From NCBI GenBank assembly GCA_965215505.1, contig OZ244065.1, forward strand, positions 2,912,001 to 2,976,000: a stretch of 64,000 nucleotides of DNA, written 5' to 3'. Shown here piece after piece: positions 12,429 to 25,778 of this stretch. The position numbers and the translations under genes were made by a program. Positions within the stretch are counted from its first letter, which is position 1. Every line of letters begins with the position of its first letter. The DNA is from Capsulimonadaceae bacterium. GTDB lineage: Bacteria; Armatimonadota; Armatimonadia; Armatimonadales; Capsulimonadaceae. The notes under the pieces are model-generated. The model was given only the letters and a program-made list of their open reading frames with translations, did not search any database and was not told the origin of the DNA.

Positions 12429-13646
12429 ATGACACCCAAAGGGCTGACACCCAAGCGGCGCGTCCTCCTCCTGATCTGGCTGATGATGGCGGTCGCCTAC
12501 CTCGACCGGACCAACATCACCGTGGCCGGGCCGACCATGATGGCCGACCTGCACCTCAGCCACGCCCGGTTCGGGTGGGTGCTGGCCGCCTTCACCTTCG
12601 GCTACGCGCTGATGCAGATACCGGGCGGTTGGCTGGCCGACCGCATCGGGTCGCGCCCGCTGCTCATCGCCGCCCTCCTGATCTGGTCCGTCTTCACCGC
12701 GCTGACCGGCCTGACGGGCGCACTCGTCCCGCTGCTGGCCGTCCGCGCCCTGTTCGGGGTCGGGGAGGGGATCGAGAACGGGGCGCAGTTCAAGCTGATC
12801 GGCGACCACTTCGCCGCGCGGGAGCGGTCGGCGGCGACCGCCTTCTTCCTGACCGCCCTGCCGCTCGGCCCGGCCCTCGGTGCGCCGGTCGTGAGCTGGC
12901 TGCTGGGCCGGACCGGGTGGCACGCCATGTTCCTCTGGTTCGCGCTGCCCGGCCTGCTCGTCGCGCTCCTGCTGTTTTGTTTCTTGCCGAGGCAGGCGCG
13001 TGAGGTGGTGCATACCGAGGTCCGGGGCGAAACGGGGCGGGAATTAGGCTGGGGCGATGCGCTGAAGCGGCAATCTTCGTGGCTGACGTTTGCCGCTTAC
13101 GGCTTCTTCAACGTCGCCTTCTGGGGGTTCATCGGCTGGATGCCGACCTACCTCAGCCAGAGCCGCCACATCGAACTAAAGTCGCTGGGGCCGCTCGCCT
13201 CTGTCCCCTACCTCTGCGGCTTCGTGGGCATGGTGGTCATCGGCAGGCTTGGCGCGGGAGTCTTCTTCGGCCGCCGGGCCGCGCTCATCGCCGCGAGCTA
13301 TGGGTTCGCCGCCGTGTTCCTCTGCGTGACCTTCACAGCGACCAACATCCCCCGTTGCCTCGCGGGCCTGTCACTGGCCGCCTTCTTCCTTTACGGCGGC
13401 TTCGGCCCATTCTGGGCGGTCGCGCTGGACCTGACCCCGGACCGGATGCGCGGGGCGTTCACGGGCTTCGTCAACATGGGCGGGCAGATCGGCGGGTTCC
13501 TCGCGCCCATCGTCGTCGGCGCGCTCGTGACGCGGACAAAATCGTTCACCGACGGCTTTCTGTTCATGACGGCCGCGCTCGTTCTGGCCTCCATTTGCCT
13601 GCTCCGGCTGCAAACGGCGGAACTTTCGGGCAAAGAAGGCCGTTAG
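12429..13646 (+). CDS. MFS transporter (anion:cation symporter-like)
   Basis: YLDRTNI, QIPGGWLADRIGSR, about 12 TM segments. Confidence 0.92.
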   Translation: MTPKGLTPKRRVLLLIWLMMAVAYLDRTNITVAGPTMMADLHLSHARFGWVLAAFTFGYALMQIPGGWLADRIGSRPLLIAALLIWSVFTALTGLTGALVPLLAVRALFGVGEGIENGAQFKLIGDHFAARERSAATAFFLTALPLGPALGAPVVSWLLGRTGWHAMFLWFALPGLLVALLLFCFLPRQAREVVHTEVRGETGRELGWGDALKRQSSWLTFAAYGFFNVAFWGFIGWMPTYLSQSRHIELKSLGPLASVPYLCGFVGMVVIGRLGAGVFFGRRAALIAASYGFAAVFLCVTFTATNIPRCLAGLSLAAFFLYGGFGPFWAVALDLTPDRMRGAFTGFVNMGGQIGGFLAPIVVGALVTRTKSFTDGFLFMTAALVLASICLLRLQTAELSGKEGR

Positions 13647-13652
13647 AGAAGA

Positions 13653-14222
13653 ATGATTCGCCCGAGACTTCTACCCATCCGACTGTCCACGCCGGTAGAA
13701 CGTCTGCCTCTCGGGCCGTTCTGGGCCGCTCTCCTCTGGCCGTTCGGCGCGTTCCTGCTCCTGGCTCTCTGCACCCAACTGACCTGGCCGAGCCACGCCG
13801 TCCACCGCGCCGGCGACTTCGGCAGCCACACCCTCTATCAGTCGTTCATGGGCATCGCCGCCGCGCTGCTGATTTGGCGCGCGCTCCGCACCGGCCCCAA
13901 GCGCCTCCTGTGGTGGCCCCCCGCCGTCGCCGCCGGCACGGGGCTGTGCGTGGAAGTTTTGAAGCGGGCCACCCACCTGCCGCGCCCCGACGGCGACCCG
14001 ACCGGCTTCCCCAGCGGCCACACGACGTTTTCCTTTGCCATCGCTTGGCTGCTGACCCGGACCCACCCCAAGCTCGCCCCGCTCTGGTACGTCGTTGCCG
14101 TCGGCATCGGCTGGTCGCGGGTGGAGGGTGAGGCCCACTTCCCCTATCAGGTGCTTTGCGGGGCGGCTTTGGGGACGCTGCTGGCCTGGGCCATCAGCCG
14201 TTTCCTTCCAGCGCGGCGGTGA
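13653..14222 (+). CDS. PAP2-family phosphatase
   Basis: KRATHLPRP, FPSGH, SRVEGEAHFPYQV motifs. Confidence 0.88.
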   Translation: MIRPRLLPIRLSTPVERLPLGPFWAALLWPFGAFLLLALCTQLTWPSHAVHRAGDFGSHTLYQSFMGIAAALLIWRALRTGPKRLLWWPPAVAAGTGLCVEVLKRATHLPRPDGDPTGFPSGHTTFSFAIAWLLTRTHPKLAPLWYVVAVGIGWSRVEGEAHFPYQVLCGAALGTLLAWAISRFLPARR

Positions 14223-15315
14223 TCGGGAACGTCCACGTCTGGGAGGCTTCGGCCCGCAGGAGCAGGGTTTTTGCGGTCGCGTCTTTGGCGAGGGGGAAGA
14301 CGACCCGAAACGTATACTCTTCCCCCTGCTTGAAGTCGTGTTCCGGCTTCTCGCGGCTCTTTGCCTTCAGGAAGGCCACGTCCTTGTCGGTTTCGCCGTC
14401 CGAATCCGTGATGGAACACGGCGCGGGGTCCCCGGCCGTGAAGTCGTTCATGGTCTGCGTCGCGGCAATCAAGCTCTTCACCGTGATCGTCGCCACGGCA
14501 TACTTCTTTCCGTCTTCGGGGGCTTCCCGGTTCGGGAGCGCGCCGGTGTCATAGCTGAGGCTGTCCAGCCGGAGCGCGAAGTGGCCCGACGGCAGGAAGA
14601 CGCCGGCTGCCCCTTTGCCGCTGCCCAGGGCGGTCGCGCCGGTGGGGTCCGACGGGTCCCGGACGTTGTCGGGCAGCGGGGCGATCACGTTCCTGGGGTC
14701 GCCGGCCTGGCCCGCCTCGGCCTCCGTCGCGCCGGCCACGAAGTAGCGCAGGACCTTCTCGCCGCTGTTCAGGCGGCCCTGGTTGACCATGATCTTGACG
14801 ATCCGCGCTTTGGCCGGGATGACCATGCTGTAGCGCAGGGGGTCGTGCCGCTCCGGCTGCCCCAGCCCCTGTCCGGGCCGCAGGGTCCAGCCCGCCTCTT
14901 TGTCGCTCGTACTCGCGAGGACCATGTCCGCGATGCTGTTCGGGTACAGCTCGCCCTGGGCATCCACCAGCGTGATGTAGGCGTCCGCATTGTAGTAACT
15001 GTCGGACGGCCTGGCGTTCTTGATCGCCACATCCAGCACCACCAGCTTCTTGTCCGCCTGGGCCGCACGCGTCTCATGGGCCGGAATCGGCTCGACGGTG
15101 TAGCGGGCGGACAGCACTTCAAAGTTGAACCCGTCCTTCAGGCTGTAAACGGTGCCGAACGCGGCATCGCCCCCCGCGATCTGCTTCTGCCCCTTCGACT
15201 GATTAGGCATGGGCGTGTGGGCAGGGCGCTTCGCCTTGGGCGGGGCGGCTAGGCACAGGGTCGCGGCGGAGAAGAGGACGAGGGAGAGGGCTACAGGGCG
15301 GGCTTGGCGGTGCAT
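14194..15315 (-). CDS. Secreted protein with two DUF4352-like beta-sandwich domains
   Basis: Signal peptide; repeated KKLVVLDVAIKN..TLVDAQGE / KKYAVATITVKS..ITDSDGE; AGGAG RBS. Confidence 0.7.
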   Translation of the reverse strand: MHRQARPVALSLVLFSAATLCLAAPPKAKRPAHTPMPNQSKGQKQIAGGDAAFGTVYSLKDGFNFEVLSARYTVEPIPAHETRAAQADKKLVVLDVAIKNARPSDSYYNADAYITLVDAQGELYPNSIADMVLASTSDKEAGWTLRPGQGLGQPERHDPLRYSMVIPAKARIVKIMVNQGRLNSGEKVLRYFVAGATEAEAGQAGDPRNVIAPLPDNVRDPSDPTGATALGSGKGAAGVFLPSGHFALRLDSLSYDTGALPNREAPEDGKKYAVATITVKSLIAATQTMNDFTAGDPAPCSITDSDGETDKDVAFLKAKSREKPEHDFKQGEEYTFRVVFPLAKDATAKTLLLRAEASQTWTFPITAALEGNG

Positions 15316-15379
15316 GGGTGATGGCTCCTTTGGTTGGCTAATGTTACCCGCCAGTCGAGGCTGGCTGGGACAAGCGAGT

Positions 15380-15532
15380 GCGGGTTAGGACGAGTGATTA
15401 AAATCACTCGCTCCGGTAGGATTTGTCCAAGGGACAAGGGGATGAAGCAACGCCGCCCTGCCCTTCTCCCTCTTCTGTCCCCTGGACAGGTCCAGTGGCA
15501 GTGAGTGATTTTAATCACTCATCCTAGCTCGC
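15380..15532. repeat. REPIN-like long inverted repeat
   Basis: GCGGGTTAGGACGAGTGATTAAAATCACTCGC at 15380-15411 and an inverted copy at 15501-15532; inner TGTCCA..TGGACA arms. Confidence 0.7.
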
Positions 15533-15552
15533 TTTTGGCCTGCTCAAGTGCC

Positions 15553-15695
15553 GTGACAGACCCCGCGCAACGTCAGTTGGATGAAAAGACACCCGGCCGC
15601 CATCCTGCAAGATGTTCACGGCGGCGTTCGTGTCCCGTTCCAGCACCAGGCCGCATTCGGAACACCGATGGTGCCGCAGGGACAGCGTCTTCGGC
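15553..15695 (-). pseudogene. tnpB: tnpB 3' fragment (Zn ribbon plus RuvC-III) with a degenerate IS605 right end (..GTCAC)
   Basis: PKTLSLRHHRCSECGLVLERDTNAAVNIL, followed by TGAC...GGGGTCTGTCAC. Confidence 0.8.
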
Positions 15696-15759
15696 GCGAA
15701 CCGACCGTACCAAACGCGACGGTGAGGAGGCCAAAGGGGCAGAATGCCGTTGAGGTGGT

Positions 15760-15790
15760 AAAGGGGCACGATCTGTCGCGCCCTTTTTTA
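15760..15790. terminator. Bidirectional intrinsic terminator after the LRR gene
   Basis: AAAGGGGCACGA-TCTG-TCGCGCCCTTTTTT. Confidence 0.65.
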
Positions 15791-15796
15791 TTCAGG

Positions 15797-16234
15797 CTAG
15801 CTGATCTCTATTTCGGGCAGTGCGCTACGGAGGGTCTTTCGTCCCACTTTGGAGATCTGAGTTTCGTCTAGGCCGATTTCTCGCAGGCCGGTCATGGAGC
15901 GGAGAGCAAGCAGAGACCCATCGGTGACCTGGCAGCCGTATAAGAAGAGGTAGTGAAGTGTGGTCATCCCACCCAGGGCTGCGATACCGGCGTCCGTCAC
16001 AGCGGTGTCGGACAGCTCAAGCCATTCGAGTTGAGGCAGTTCCCGGAGCGCCGACACCCCCTGATCAGTGAGGCCGGTGCCACCCATATAAAGTGTCTTA
16101 ATTGTCGGGTGCCCCAAGAGAGTCACTACTGCGGCGTCCCCAATCTCATGGTGATTAGAAAGATCTACCGAAATAGCCTCGCCGCCTTCCCACTCAATGC
16201 GGTGGTCGCCTGCCACTAAGTCTTCTAGACGCAT
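15797..16234 (-). CDS. Leucine-rich-repeat protein (~24-aa repeats)
   Basis: Repeated LxxLxxLxxLxLxxTxVTDxG; lower GC than the flanks. Confidence 0.85.
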   Translation of the reverse strand: MRLEDLVAGDHRIEWEGGEAISVDLSNHHEIGDAAVVTLLGHPTIKTLYMGGTGLTDQGVSALRELPQLEWLELSDTAVTDAGIAALGGMTTLHYLFLYGCQVTDGSLLALRSMTGLREIGLDETQISKVGRKTLRSALPEIEIS

Positions 16235-16281
16235 GGTGTCCGTGTTCCTAATCAGTGTGAGGCAGAATTTCCCAGTTCAGA

Positions 16282-16304
16282 TAGCCACAGGTTTCAACCT
16301 GTGG
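16282..16304. repeat. REP-like hairpin (GCCAC..GTTTCAACC..GTGG family)
   Basis: TAGCCACAGGTTTCAACCTGTGG; related copies at 9555-9579, 63747-63769 and 63877-63899. Confidence 0.65.
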
Positions 16305-16316
16305 TGCCCTCTCGCC

Positions 16317-16496
16317 TTACGACAGACCAGCCTGCTGCTCGAACCATGTGGGCGAGCGCCCTAGGCAGTCGTAGTCATAAGCACGCCAGTGAAGCAGGGA
16401 GTTGTAGGGGTTGCGGCAGGTGTCCAGGGTATCCGTGAGAACGCGGGCCTGTGCTTTGGTGGGATAAAGCCGGTAGCGGAACGTCTGGTAAATCAT
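16317..16496 (-). pseudogene. tnpB: tnpB 5' fragment (HTH_OrfB_IS605-like), 59 aa
   Basis: MIYQTFRYRLYPTKAQARVLTDTLDTCRNPYNSLL..R..Y..GRS..FEQQ; GGAAGG RBS. Confidence 0.85.
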
Positions 16497-16549
16497 GGCC
16501 GCCTTCCCTAGCGAGCGTGTGAGGGGCAGGTAAACCCAGGACCACCTCA

Positions 16550-16727
16550 GTGACATATCCCGCCGTCGTGCATGGCAGGCCTTCTCCGTCAGGGCGACGA
16601 AAGCATTGATGCCCCAATGCCGAGGCTGGCAGTTTCGGAGAACCCGAAACCCCAATAGTGGCACTTCCCGCCGTGGTACAATGGCAGGCTTTCTTCGCCA
16701 AAGCGAACACATTAGCGCCCTAATGTG
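16550..16727 (-). ncRNA. Two tandem ~70-nt structured units resembling IS605 right-end/TnpB omegaRNA scaffolds
   Basis: Units at 16658-16727 and 16550-16621, each with three hairpins, ending GAAA/GAAG-GCCTGCC..GGCGGG-N4-G(C/T)CAC; TGGC/GCCA versus TGAC/GTCA covariation. Confidence 0.55.
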
Positions 16728-16729
16728 AG

Positions 16730-16804
16730 TGGTGGGTCGGTCGGGGCTCGAACCCGAAACCCTCTCATTAAAAGTAAGATGCTCTACCATTGAGCTACCG
16801 ACCC
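16730..16804 (-). tRNA. tRNA-Lys (anticodon TTT)
   Basis: GGGTCGG TAGCTCAATGGTAGAGC A TCTTA CT-TTT-AA TGAGA GGGTT TCGGGTTCGAGCCCCGA CCGACCC ACCA cloverleaf with encoded CCA. Confidence 0.96.
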
Positions 16805-16812
16805 ACGCCAAC

Positions 16813-16841
16813 ATTGTACCCAGTAAGGCGACCAAAGTCAA
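16813..16841 (-). promoter_or_regulatory. Sigma-70 promoter of tRNA-Lys
   Basis: TTGACT-N17-TACAAT. Confidence 0.75.
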
Positions 16842-16943
16842 CCTTTTTAGTCAAAGAAGCGGCAGGAGACGGGGGCAACGAAGGCGAACTAAAAGGGCAA
16901 GAACAAGCATTACACAAGTATCACAAACGGAGGCACGAGACAC

Positions 16944-18410
16944 ATGGCGGATAAACCGAATTTCGGACTGACGGGGCTTGCGGTCATGGGGCAGAACCTG
17001 GCGCGGAACGTCGCGCACAAGGGGTTCCCCATTGCCGTCCACAACCGGACGACGGAGAAGACCGACAAGTTCATGCAGGAGCACGGCGGCGAGGGGGCTT
17101 TGGTCGGGTCGCAGAGCGTGGAGGAGTTCGTCGGCGCGCTCCAGTCGCCGCGCGCCATCATGATCATGGTCAAGGCGGGCCGGGCCGTGGACGACGTCAT
17201 CGCCGAGATCAAGCCGCTGCTGGCTAAGGGCGACCTGCTGATCGACGGCGGCAACTCGCTGTTCTCGGACACCGAGCGGCGCGTCACCGAACTGGCCCAG
17301 GACGGCATCCTGTTCCTCGGGACGGGCGTCTCGGGCGGCGAGGAGGGGGCGCTGAACGGGCCGAGCATCATGCCCGGCGGGAACGAGGCGGCTTACAAGA
17401 TCGTCGAGCCGATCTTCACCAAGATTGCCGCCCAGGTGGATGGGACGCCCTGCTGCACCTACATCGGCGACGGCGGGGCGGGCCACTACGTCAAGATGGT
17501 CCACAACGGCATCGAGTACGCCGACATGCAGCTCATCGCCGAGGCGTATGACCTGCTCAAGAACGGGGCCGGGCTGACCAACGACGAGCTGCACGCGGTC
17601 TTCACGCAGTGGAACGAGGGCGACCTGGACTCGTTCCTGATCGAGATCACCGCCCAGATCTTCGCCAAGAAGGACGACGACACCGGCGACTACCTGGTGG
17701 ATCGCGTCCTGGACCGGGCCGCCCAGAAGGGGACCGGCAAGTGGACCGTCCAGAGCGCCTTGGACCTCGGCATCCCCGTCACGGCGATCACCGAGGCCGT
17801 TTTTGCGCGCGGCCTGTCGTCGTTCAAAGAGCAGCGCGTGGCCGCCTCCAAGGTCCTCCCCGGCCCGACCGGCGGCAAGGTCGAGGGGGATCGGCAGGCC
17901 TTCATTGACGCCGTCCGGGACGCCCTCTATGCCTCCAAGGTTGTCGCCTACGCCCAGGGGTTCGACCAGATGCTTGCGGCGGCACACGAGCATGGCTGGC
18001 AGCTCCACCCCGGCGAGATCGCGACCATCTGGCGGGGGGGGTGCATCATCCGCGCCCGCTTCCTGGACCGGATCAAGGACGCCTATGACCAGAACCCAGA
18101 CCTCGCGAACCTGCTGCTGGCCCCCTACTTCACCGAGGCGGTCGCCAAGGGCCAGGACGGCTGGCGGCGGGTCGTCGGCGAGGCCGCGCGGCTCGGCATC
18201 CCCATCCCGGCCTTCTCGTCGGCCCTGGCCTACTACGACGGCTACCGCCGCGAGCGGCTGCCGGCGAACTTGATCCAGGCCCAGCGCGACCTGTTCGGCG
18301 CACACACCTACGAGCGGACCGACAAGCCCGGCGCGTTCCACTCGCAGTGGGCCGAGGAGAAGCAGGAGCCGAAGTCGGAAGAGCAGCACGGCGTCCAGAC
18401 GACGGAGTGA
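16944..18410 (+). CDS. gndA: NADP-dependent 6-phosphogluconate dehydrogenase
   Basis: [49 protein letters not shown]. Confidence 0.97.
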
Positions 18411-18441
18411 GCAGATGAAAGGGCGGCAGGGACGAACAAAG

Positions 18442-18467
18442 AGGGCGGGGACAAGCCCCGCCCCTAC
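18442..18467. repeat. GTAG-type REP-like hairpin
   Basis: AGGGCGGGGACAAGCCCCGCCCCTAC. Confidence 0.65.
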
Positions 18468-18485
18468 GCCACCGGGGATCATCTG

Positions 18486-19616
18486 ATGTCTGACCTCTCA
18501 CCCACTGCCCAAACTAGGCTCTCGTTTGAAGTCGCAGGCTTAGACGTTTCTGTGGGGCGTCGCGGCGAGTCCGCGATTGCCATGAATGACCACGGCCAGA
18601 TCGTCGGTGTCGCAGGGGAGCAGGCTTATCTCTGGGAGGCGGGCCGCATCCACTATTTAGAGGCTTTGCCTGGTACGCATTATCTGTCCCCACGCGCCAT
18701 CAATAATGCCGGTCAGATCGTTGGGGTCGCCTACCATCCGGACCTCGACGGTCGACGCGCGTTCCTTTGGGAGAAGGGCAAAACACACGACCTAGGAATG
18801 CCGCCGGACGAACTCTCCGAAGCATCGGACGTTAATGAGCGGGGGCAGGTCATCGGCAGGTCTTACCGGACGATTTTGAAGAACGAGGTGGAGAGGTGGA
18901 TAGACCTTTCCCACAATTTCCTCTGGAGCGAACGCGCCGGGTTCCAGAAGCTGGAAAAACCCGTGGATAATTTTGGTGACGGGCTATCCGCGATCAATGA
19001 CCGGGGCCAGATCACCGGCTCCTCCGGATTGCTGGGGATGGAGCAGAAGAAGGCAAAATTGGCTGCCCTTGCGCCCGACAAGAGGCCCTACGAGGGCAAC
19101 ATCCTCCCCGATGGAGCATTCATCTGGCAGGACGGAGTGACAACAAGCCTGGGTTTGGCGGAGGCGTGGAGCAGCAGTGGGACTGACATCAATAACCACG
19201 GTGAGATCATCGGGCGCATGTCGCTCTACCCTGACACGGACCATGTCGTCACATCCGGCGACATGGCGGAGATCAGGGACAGACTACGCCACTCGCACCA
19301 CTTCTTCCTGTGGAGGGATGGACAGGCCAATGATCTGGGCGAAACAGGCAATGACCATTCGGCGACGCGACCCGCGATCAACGATGCCGGCGATGCGATT
19401 TTCTCCTACATCGACCCTTCGCAGCCAAAAGCGGCCGACATGGGACGCCGCAGCATCCTTCACCAACACGGCGGGAGACACCGCTTGGAGAATTTCGCCG
19501 CCCACGATTCCGGCTGGCTTCTGTCCACAGCCGTTGACATCAACAACCGAGGCCAGATACTTGGGAACGGGTTCTACCAGGGGCGGGGGCGTGCATTCCT
19601 GCTCACGCCGAGCTGA
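18486..19616 (+). CDS. HAF-family extracellular repeat protein
   Basis: Repeated A(I/M)N(D/N)xGQI(V/I)G..AFLW..G..DLG. Confidence 0.85.
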   Translation: MSDLSPTAQTRLSFEVAGLDVSVGRRGESAIAMNDHGQIVGVAGEQAYLWEAGRIHYLEALPGTHYLSPRAINNAGQIVGVAYHPDLDGRRAFLWEKGKTHDLGMPPDELSEASDVNERGQVIGRSYRTILKNEVERWIDLSHNFLWSERAGFQKLEKPVDNFGDGLSAINDRGQITGSSGLLGMEQKKAKLAALAPDKRPYEGNILPDGAFIWQDGVTTSLGLAEAWSSSGTDINNHGEIIGRMSLYPDTDHVVTSGDMAEIRDRLRHSHHFFLWRDGQANDLGETGNDHSATRPAINDAGDAIFSYIDPSQPKAADMGRRSILHQHGGRHRLENFAAHDSGWLLSTAVDINNRGQILGNGFYQGRGRAFLLTPS

Positions 19617-25578: not shown

Positions 25579-25728
25579 GCCACGGGGCTGAACCCCCATG
25601 CTTCGGGAGTGCAAGCCCCCGCCTGCGCGGGCGAAGACAAAAGGGCGCGGCGAGCAGCGCCCCTACCCATCCTATGCCCTCAACCCTCGGGGAGTTGCTT
25701 TACCGAAGCCCAGGGGTTTAGCCCTGGG
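25579..25728. repeat. Composite REPIN-like element inside the tad operon
   Basis: Outer inverted arms GCCACGGGGCTGAACCCCCATGCTTCGG / CCGAAGCCCAGGGGTTTAGCCCTGGG enclosing a REP at 25642-25666. Confidence 0.6.
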
Positions 25729-25778
25729 TCCTACCCGCCGGGGGCGGACCACTGAGTCCTTTCCATCGTGAGGCAGCC

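Follow-up and report, generated by a model that had tools for sequence, protein, structure and literature searches.

The window analysed here is a stretch of 64,000 nucleotides from a Capsulimonadaceae bacterium (contig OZ244065.1, positions 2,912,001 to 2,976,000; the genome carrying it, 6.18 Mb in size, is called G000 below, and all coordinates are window positions unless another contig is named). On its minus strand a tRNA-Lys gene is followed by two tandem units of about 70 nt, each with a spacer behind it, and by the start of a tnpB gene. The best explanation that we found for this locus is that the units are omegaRNA scaffolds of an ISDra2-like IS200/IS605 TnpB lineage, relocated from the 3'-end of tnpB to behind tRNA-Lys. 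Covariance models recognise the units as homologues of tnpB-linked right ends in both directions of search, the fold is kept by compensatory changes, and both spacers are decayed 3' halves of tRNA-Lys. We give somewhat better than an even chance to the reading that the scaffolds are cotranscribed with the tRNA, that its maturation frees them and that the downstream TnpB directs them against tRNA-Lys alleles. In G000 itself tnpB is destroyed, therefore the array there is probably a recent, still well-formed relic.

An original prediction for this stretch had described, on the minus strand, a promoter, tRNA-Lys, a gap of 2 nt, two three-hairpin units and the start of tnpB, and we located all of them in this order:

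16944..18410, plus strand: start of a divergent gene resembling 6-phosphogluconate dehydrogenase (gnd), from the open reading frame (ORF) listing
16841..16813, minus strand: sigma70-like promoter of tRNA-Lys, TTGACT-17-TACAAT, 10 of 12 matches
16804..16730, minus strand: tRNA-Lys(UUU), CCA encoded (ARAGORN; Rfam tRNA, 70.7 bits)
16727..16658, minus strand: unit 1, about 70 nt, with hairpin 1 and its pseudoknot loop, hairpin 2, GAAAGCC, hairpin 3 and the tail ...GUGCCAC
16657..16621, minus strand: spacer 1 (37 nt, that is 35 + 2), decayed tRNA-Lys 3' half and would-be guide 1
16620..16550, minus strand: unit 2, the second scaffold copy, with the tail ...AUGUCAC
16549..16519, minus strand: spacer 2, a tRNA-Lys 3' half of the TGAG type typical of the genus, decayed and older than spacer 1; would-be guide 2
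16518..16497, minus strand: 22-nt leader with the ribosome-binding site before tnpB, conserved in the related genome G022 and in the metagenome loci L136 and L140

The promoter is the only sigma70-like site between 15200 and 17000, and the end of unit 2 lies 53 nt (spacer 2 plus leader) before the tnpB start codon at 16496. The locus is periodic, with a period of about 108 nt: an intact tRNA, then one or two modules of a scaffold plus a displaced tRNA-Lys 3' half, the 22-nt leader and tnpB. A scan of 14500-17500 against Rfam (E up to 1) gave the tRNA and chance matches only, and the whole 321-nt region, when folded, had an uninformative z of -1.9.

The units and canonical TnpB right ends

Canonical homologues of this TnpB are about 370 aa long and their right end starts directly after the RuvC-III motif. 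Hairpin 1 covers the final codons (...LGQQCL...) and is followed by hairpin 2, (T)AGAAGCC, hairpin 3 with its TTTA loop and finally GGGGAGTWGTCAC, beyond which the flanks diverge. Hairpin 1 of unit 2 can still be translated as the final tnpB codons A-L-G-H-Q-C. A regular expression for canonical right ends gave 75 matches in 73 of 110 loci, of which three were false and were dropped, and 62 distinct ends were obtained. The covariance model R1 was built from 55 of these 62 and contained no units; seven Firmicutes-type ends with long inserts were omitted. In a 78-kb search R1 found unit 2 with 18.4 bits (E 0.0027), the unit of L136 (E 0.0019) and both units of L140 (E around 0.035), and with its default filters it missed unit 1 of the window and both units of G022. 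With the filters off, in 1.7 kb, unit 2 reached 18.3 bits (E 6e-5) and unit 1 12.8 bits (E 0.0029), and both matches stop exactly at the last base of the unit. On G022, R1 gave 16.7 bits to unit 2 and 2 bits, which is not significant, to unit 1; a whole-genome scan of G000 with this model gave nothing at E up to 1.

In the opposite direction, the model R2, built from seven units of four loci, was searched in 61 related genomes. The top matches were only the two units of G000 (85 and 84 bits) and the two of G022 (79 and 77 bits). The weaker matches, from 38 to 20 bits, were canonical right ends, at least five of them abutting the 3'-end of tnpB homologues. Thus a covariance model of the units, which the original prediction had proposed as a check, recovers canonical ends next to tnpB, the canonical model recovers units, and on these grounds the units are homologous to tnpB-linked right ends, that is, to omegaRNA scaffolds. 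The termini agree with this kinship, since the units finish in G(T/C)CAC (...GTCAC or ...GCCAC), as canonical ends do, and TCAC is invariant in the 55 canonical ends of R1. Regarding their position, the units are unlike canonical ends: they lie 5' of tnpB and behind a tRNA, in one or two copies, and not at the 3'-end of tnpB. Neither short-word BLAST nor a regular expression nor the exact pattern found further unit copies in the 6.18 Mb of G000. In G000 the units occur at a single locus, and in G022 at the same one, so they are not dispersed repetitive extragenic palindromes (REP) or palindrome-associated transposable elements (PATE).

Two side observations concern ends of this kind elsewhere. 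At 25688-25730 of the window, around a partial R1 match on the plus strand (25705-25728), there is a GAAGCC-hairpin with a TTTA loop that resembles an IS200/IS605 end hairpin and has 15 BLAST matches in G000, its own site included; together with the eight Y1-transposase matches of this genome it may represent a system of the REP/RAYT (REP-associated tyrosine transposase) type. G022 holds 19 canonical right ends of the family (up to 73 bits; L185-L194 and others) for about four tnpB homologues at E<=1e-60, and many of these ends may be solo ends or PATE-like derivatives; G000 carries no such end.

Regarding the fold, 97.5% of the 121 cells of hairpins 1-3 are paired in the seven units of the four loci, four pairs are compensatory, and none of 500 shuffles equalled this, so the stems are indeed preserved despite the divergence of the sequence, as had been claimed. 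When partners of 4 bp for the tail were sought blindly in the unit alignment, the hairpin-1 loop emerged. The resulting pseudoknot joins this loop to tail positions -7..-3 by five pairs. Among the 55 canonical ends 99.3% of its 275 cells are paired, with 38 cells changed on both sides; no shuffle out of 500 reached the observed value and slid controls gave 21-56%. For the seven cassette units the count is 33 paired cells out of 35, with three compensatory pairs (5 of 500 shuffles reached the covariation score; slid controls, 17-60%), and the pseudoknot is retained in all of them except unit 2 of G022. The original prediction had also closed a pseudoknot with the last bases, and this part is supported by covariation. 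Its partner, the 3' strand of hairpin 2 (TGGC/TGAC with GCCA/GTCA), did not stand: that pairing is present in the two units of G000 and broken in three of the seven orthologous units, with 78.6% of cells paired, a value equalled by 199 of 500 shuffles. We found no fixed-position complement of the terminal TCAC in the 62 canonical ends. RNAalifold, applied to 38 canonical ends out of the 62 after their extension to 130 nt, proposed that GAC, the codon of the RuvC-III Asp, pairs with GUC at -5..-3. This pairing was discarded as spurious; it showed no covariation, its pairs being invariant or altered on one side only.

The published description of the ISDra2 complex (PMC10097598) places the partner of -5..-3 at -105..-103, enclosed by stem 1 (-116..-86), gives the last stem a UUUA tetraloop and has the bound RNA 5'-processed to the start of stem 1. 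The cassette units start exactly at the first base of stem 1 and keep the pseudoknot, and therefore each 70-nt unit is a complete omegaRNA-type scaffold. The divergence of the units is below the synonymous one: between G000 and G022 it is 0.14 and 0.18 for the two units against a proportion of synonymous differences (pS) of 0.29 in gnd, and between G022 and L140 it is 0.20 for unit 2 against a pS of 0.45-0.49 in tnpB. DNA recognition of the TnpA type, as is known from IS608, requires only the subterminal hairpin. Nevertheless, hairpins 1 and 2 and the pseudoknot are kept in the units, which points to selection on RNA.

Spacers and the resident tRNA-Lys

The segments of 37 and 53 nt behind the units had been taken for unique, and in fact they are homologous to one another and to tRNA-Lys 3' halves. 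The spacers begin directly after ...G(T/C)CAC with the sequence that lies 3' of the anticodon-loop TTTAA in tRNA-Lys(UUU), and the 35 + 2 nt of spacer 1 correspond in length to a tRNA 3' half that starts at position 39 and ends with the discriminator. When the spacers were compared with tRNA-Lys 3' halves against shuffled spacers, p was <=0.001 in four of seven and 0.01-0.03 in two of seven, and the resemblance was not significant for spacer 2 of L140 (p 0.09). For spacer 2 of G000, the comparison with the outgroup tRNA-Lys allele gave p 0.03. Furthermore, the resemblance is allele-specific. Spacer 1 of G000 matches the tRNA of L136 and L140 at 16 of 17 positions, spacer 1 of L140 matches the genus-typical tRNA-Lys at 16 of 17, and the live tRNA of the genome G011 differs from spacer 1 of G022 once in the first 18 positions (by eye). 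Positions 1-17 of the spacers are kept in 106 of 119 comparisons, scored against an allele picked on those same positions, and positions 18-35 in 68 of 126 even with gaps. We conclude that both spacers are decayed tRNA-Lys 3' halves.

We take the first 16-20 nt of a spacer as the putative guide and the anticodon-loop TTTAA as the putative target-adjacent motif (TAM). Compared with the tRNA beside which it lies, each of the seven would-be guides has at least three mismatches in its first 12 nt, and five of the seven are within 2 of 16 of a tRNA-Lys allele in another genome. A search for targets, which the original prediction had suggested, was made in G000 and gave no near match beyond the self sites. 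With up to 4 mismatches in 20 nt, guide 1 had its self site and one match with 4 mismatches there, and guide 2 had, apart from its self site, five matches with 4 mismatches each.

The resident tRNA-Lys differs between loci with and without the cassette (the tRNA-Lys, the units and tnpB). Its anticodon stem is TCT[TC]A/TGAGA in all 18 loci without cassette; among the loci with an intact tnpB, G022 has CGATA/TATCG, and L136 and L140 share CAATA/TATTG. The tRNA-Lys of the intact-tnpB loci has 11-18 differences from the outgroup, against a maximum of 11 in outgroup pairwise comparisons, and of 401 genomes sampled from the phylum two had a variant anticodon stem of this kind, one of them being G011, of the same genus (G022 lies outside this sample). 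In G000, where tnpB is dead, the tRNA-Lys has a native, genus-typical anticodon stem (TCTTA/TGAGA) and an L136-like T stem. This pattern of divergence, seen in two or three independent lineages, is what avoidance of self-targeting would predict.

Two observations on tRNA-Lys genes may be added. Contig C62 of G011 (L207) ends inside the T loop of a tRNA-Lys with the rare CAATA/TATTG stem, and a cassette may lie beyond this assembly break. G000 has a second tRNA-Lys(UUU) gene (C1:2221338-2221409) of very different sequence, possibly foreign, and this gene could have buffered a disruption of tRNA-Lys at the cassette locus.

The cassette and its tnpB in G000 and in relatives

The gene behind the array had been called tnpB in the original prediction. 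This was right for its ATG and N-terminal start, whereas only 59 codons follow, the middle is displaced by a leucine-rich repeat (LRR) segment and a C-terminal stub is all that is left beyond it:

16496..16317, minus strand: N-terminal fragment of tnpB, 59 codons and a stop, HTH_OrfB_IS605, 86% identical to the metagenome protein P0003
16329..15712, minus strand: 618-nt segment displacing around 790 nt of tnpB (about codons 55-318), unique in the genome
16234..15797, minus strand: LRR ORF inside the 618-nt segment, 145-aa protein with LRR_6 and LRR_4
15711..15585, minus strand: C-terminal remnant of tnpB with the zinc ribbon and the RuvC-III motif, Cas12f1-like_TNB

The pieces are 85-86% identical to P0003, an intact protein of 400 aa, and tnpB in G000 is a pseudogene. 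The segment at 15621..15553, which follows the C-terminal stub, ends in GTCAC and might be a remnant of a native right end, was not significant under the canonical model (2.5 bits, E 4.1). The only other tnpB of G000 (C1:5980165-5980369, L001) belongs to a different lineage and is frameshifted, with its C-terminal zinc-ribbon part in another frame.

The surroundings of the stub gave some further observations. The 618-nt segment starts beside an 8-bp hairpin at about 16285-16310. Directly after the tnpB stub, at 15380-15525, there is a 146-nt element with terminal inverted repeats of the GAGTGATTAAAATCACTC type, which has 226 BLAST matches at around 80% identity across G000 and a very high summed depth in four metagenome runs; it is a high-copy dispersed repeat resembling miniature inverted-repeat transposable elements (MITE) or REP. 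Contigs from four DNA runs gave weak hints only for the region 15250-16950, namely several unresolved joints and one X9 contig, with a depth as low as 2.4, that omits exactly one 106-nt block.

Regarding the relatives, the tRNA and its promoter were matched in 45 of 61 related genomes and the whole array only in G022, with 78% identity. The order in G022 is gnd, promoter, tRNA-Lys, unit 1, spacer 1, unit 2, spacer 2 and a full tnpB, followed by the same downstream gene as in G000. A scan of metagenomes gave four more loci:

L136 and L137: one unit each, mutually 97% identical from 75 nt upstream of the tRNA onward
L138: starts inside tnpB
L140: two units

The expectation that relatives would carry tRNA-Lys, one or more units and a full tnpB is thus borne out in G022, L136, L137 and L140. 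Across the cassette loci the unit lies 2-7 nt behind the tRNA gene. At 18 other tRNA-Lys loci of the genus and family the sequence after the tRNA is unrelated. ARAGORN, run on 155 tnpB loci, placed tRNA-Lys directly upstream of tnpB only in the cassette clade, and it found no full element made of a tRNA half, tnpB and a right end. The tRNA promoter is the sole promoter-like site on the same strand upstream of tnpB in G000, G022 and L136, in G022 and L136 this holds for the whole stretch from gnd to the end of tnpB, and a search of these two loci found no terminator-like site on that strand before tnpB. As a separate observation, a distant tnpB homologue with 36% identity (L144:2368-4054) has, no more than 150 nt downstream, an array of five tRNA genes (Phe, Asp, Phe, Thr and Met).

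The orthologue in G022 (P0001), which served as the source for the homologue collection, is full length. The full-length cassette TnpB has the Pfam domains HTH_OrfB_IS605, OrfB_IS605 and Cas12f1-like_TNB; its closest solved relative is the TnpB of ISDra2 (8h1j/8exa), with E 1e-46 over residues 7-355. The D/E/D motifs, identified by eye, are GLDVG, AVEAL and RDTNAA in the protein of G022, and equivalents are found in L136. Among the canonical homologues that a search of 39 family genomes gave, none exceeds 58% identity to the cassette TnpB. The substitution rates between the intact copies were as follows:

G022-L136: 359 codons, dS 0.88, dN/dS 0.17
L136-L140: 158 codons, dS 0.32, dN/dS 0.11
G022-L140: 158 codons, dS 0.70, dN/dS 0.22

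Therefore, the cassette tnpB is under purifying selection in relatives. No right end was found after tnpB in G022, nor in L136, where the stop codon of tnpB overlaps the end of a convergent transporter gene and thus leaves no room for it.

Readings of the locus and known systems

Homology, structure, covariation, conservation, selection on tnpB and the tRNA origin of the spacers are shown by the analyses above, and from them we infer a course that would comprise transcription, processing, binding by TnpB, a TAM, target cleavage and homing. In relatives with an intact tnpB a single transcript would run from the tRNA promoter, and the 3' maturation of the tRNA would fix the 5'-end of scaffold 1 a few bases ahead of its first stem. 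The 16-18 nt following ...G(U/C)CAC would serve as guide. Since this guide is a former tRNA-Lys 3' half from behind TTTAA, TnpB would be directed at tRNA-Lys(UUU) alleles of the guide's type, with TTTAA as TAM. The resident tRNA would be spared because its anticodon stem or T stem is recoded within the seed, and the net outcome would be homing into, or exclusion of, 'naive' tRNA-Lys alleles. A more specific version, which we hold only tentatively and regard as rather unlikely, is that the cassette acts as a self-immune allele drive, guided by RNA, within an essential tRNA gene. TnpB would cut a naive tRNA-Lys(UUU) beside TTTAA and repair would copy the cassette; the incoming recoded tRNA half, with its new anticodon or T stem, would restore the tRNA and evade the guide, and repeated rounds would stack modules, giving something like the two-entry array.

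Several points weigh against this use of the scaffolds by TnpB. Under the canonical model the units score low, with 18 and 13 bits in G000 and 2 bits for unit 1 of G022, unit 2 of G022 breaks two of the five pseudoknot pairs, and the loop of hairpin 3 has 9-10 nt in the units against TTTA in canonical ends. Hairpin 1 of unit 1 scores as a weak terminator in G000, where a T-rich tail follows it; this tail occurs only in G000 and is missing in G022, L136 and L140. The units of G000 are as good as those of G022 despite the broken tnpB, which would mean either a recent loss or a role independent of TnpB. The guides are simply old insertion flank, as a relic would also show, and the excess at spacer positions 1-17 suffers from the choice of the allele on these positions and could owe something to gene conversion with the adjacent tRNA. 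The TAM is a putative one, and canonical left flanks read TTAC, TTAAC or TTATC (by eye), not TTTAA. The divergence of the tRNA could also reflect a foreign tRNA half imported with the module. Furthermore, the independent lineages are few, namely G000, G022, the group of L136, L137 and L138 (97-99% alike) and L140, and the origin of the first module of tRNA half and scaffold is not explained by any demonstrated route. The routes weighed were an insertion at TTTAA, an insertion after the 3'-end of the tRNA, tandem copies of the insertion sequence followed by deletion, and repair scars; none of them could be demonstrated.

The strongest rival, which we consider unlikely though a serious candidate, is an inert or near-inert scar: an IS605-family element would once have entered tRNA-Lys or its immediate vicinity, and the two right-end stubs with their tRNA flanks would be what later rearrangement and tandem duplication spared. 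What is conserved would then serve the 3' maturation of the tRNA, the stability of the transcript or the 5' untranslated region of tnpB, and TnpB would use omegaRNAs from other copies in trans or none. The persistence of the units beside a dead tnpB in the window, guides that are merely former flank and the low unit scores all suit such a scar, and the 19 canonical right ends of G022 could supply RNA in trans. Nevertheless, the pseudoknot and three hairpins were kept by compensatory change after the units diverged, which is hard to explain without selection on the folded RNA, and the units are whole scaffolds from the first base of stem 1, not random stubs. Moreover, tnpB stands at a fixed locus under purifying selection with no right end of its own, and its identity to canonical homologues does not exceed the 58% given above.

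Stacked non-autonomous PATE-like elements, moved in trans by a Y1 transposase (TnpA), with the first hairpin terminating the tRNA transcript, had been offered as an alternative in the original prediction, and we regard them as improbable. Y1_Tnp (PF01797) matches do exist, eight in G000 and 10 in G022; the units finish in the cleavage-type motif of the family, hairpin 1 of unit 1 looks like a terminator in G000, and the block omitted by the X9 contig suggests that the copy number may vary. However, there is no left-end hairpin between the tRNA and tnpB, whereas canonical left ends have one like hairpin 3, and the T-rich tail of hairpin 1 is peculiar to G000. The confinement of the units to one locus in each of G000 and G022 also disagrees with mobile elements, as does the maintenance of hairpins 1 and 2 and of the pseudoknot, if TnpA needs only the subterminal hairpin, and recombination between the tRNA-half repeats explains the loss or gain of a block equally well. 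An even more improbable reading is the one which the original prediction preferred, a CRISPR-like multiplexed array of two independent guides, not related to tRNA-Lys and possibly meant for another TnpB or TldR in trans. The layout does resemble repeats and spacers and the scaffolds are complete. Its 'guides', however, are two diverged copies of one displaced tRNA-Lys 3' half, and spacers homologous to each other and to the tRNA do not make a multiplex array; besides, G000 has no other near guide match, and an action in trans is not supported, because its sole other tnpB is frameshifted and of another lineage. We therefore keep to cotranscribed scaffolds used by the downstream TnpB as the favoured reading.

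To our knowledge, TnpB guide RNAs have been found only at the 3'-end of the gene, tied to the transposon end. Our full-text literature searches, as far as the texts were accessible, gave no description of an upstream or tRNA-fused one, and supplementary tables of TnpB and guide RNAs might hold such loci. If the favoured reading is true, a scaffold-guide module can separate from the transposon end and be arrayed, a step from omegaRNA toward CRISPR-like arrays, and a nuclease-active TnpB persists at a fixed locus, aimed at an essential tRNA gene whose resident copy is recoded; tRNA evolution imposed by a guide would then become directly testable. The analysis also yields a compact scaffold of about 70 nt for the cassette TnpB family, with a pseudoknot backed by covariation.

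Among known systems, the cassette is most like TnpB and omegaRNA (reRNA) of the ISDra2 type. The proteins are homologous over their full length, the loop of stem 1 pairs with bases just before the guide, there are one or more middle stems and a last stem beside the guide, and the guide is the sequence following the right end. Unlike in ISDra2, where a scaffold of 116 nt overlaps the 3'-end of tnpB, the cassette scaffold of about 70 nt occurs singly or as a tandem pair upstream of tnpB, and only 2-7 nt separate it from the tRNA gene before it. The cassette also lacks a left end, its tnpB is not followed by a right end in G022 and L136, and its locus is fixed, not dispersed.

Among domesticated TnpB proteins, the TnpB-like repressors TldR have an inactivated RuvC site and are nuclease-dead, and their guide RNA is encoded 3' of the gene (PMC10705468). 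With TldR, as characterised there, the cassette shares a tnpB without tnpA or recognisable ends and an adjacently encoded guide RNA; it differs in its D/E/D motifs, which are present in G022 and L136, in the upstream position of its scaffolds and in having guides that match a tRNA gene and not a promoter. The proposed logic, in which an element-free allele is cut, repair copies the element and the bearer is immune, is that of homing endonuclease genes and of TnpB-assisted transposon retention. A 2026 review on OMEGA mentions the T4 endonuclease SegB, which cleaves tRNA genes, and tRNA-gene-specific transposons (PMC13565253). Unlike in homing systems, recognition in the cassette would be guided by RNA, and immunity would come from the recoded half of an essential tRNA and not from the interruption of the site.

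An intact tRNA followed by displaced partial 3' copies is also typical of integrative elements in tRNA genes, whereas the inserted module here has only about 108 nt and its breakpoint adjoins a right end of the IS200/IS605 type. The ORF listing of 13000-19500 contains no tyrosine or serine recombinase beside the partial tRNA copies, and the only mobile-element gene in it is tnpB. Finally, in engineered polycistronic tRNA-gRNA arrays, the guide RNA is placed directly behind a tRNA and is freed by tRNA maturation. Those arrays are synthetic, whereas the cassette, with its inferred processing, would be a natural instance, and nature may thus free guide RNAs by tRNA maturation, as engineers do.

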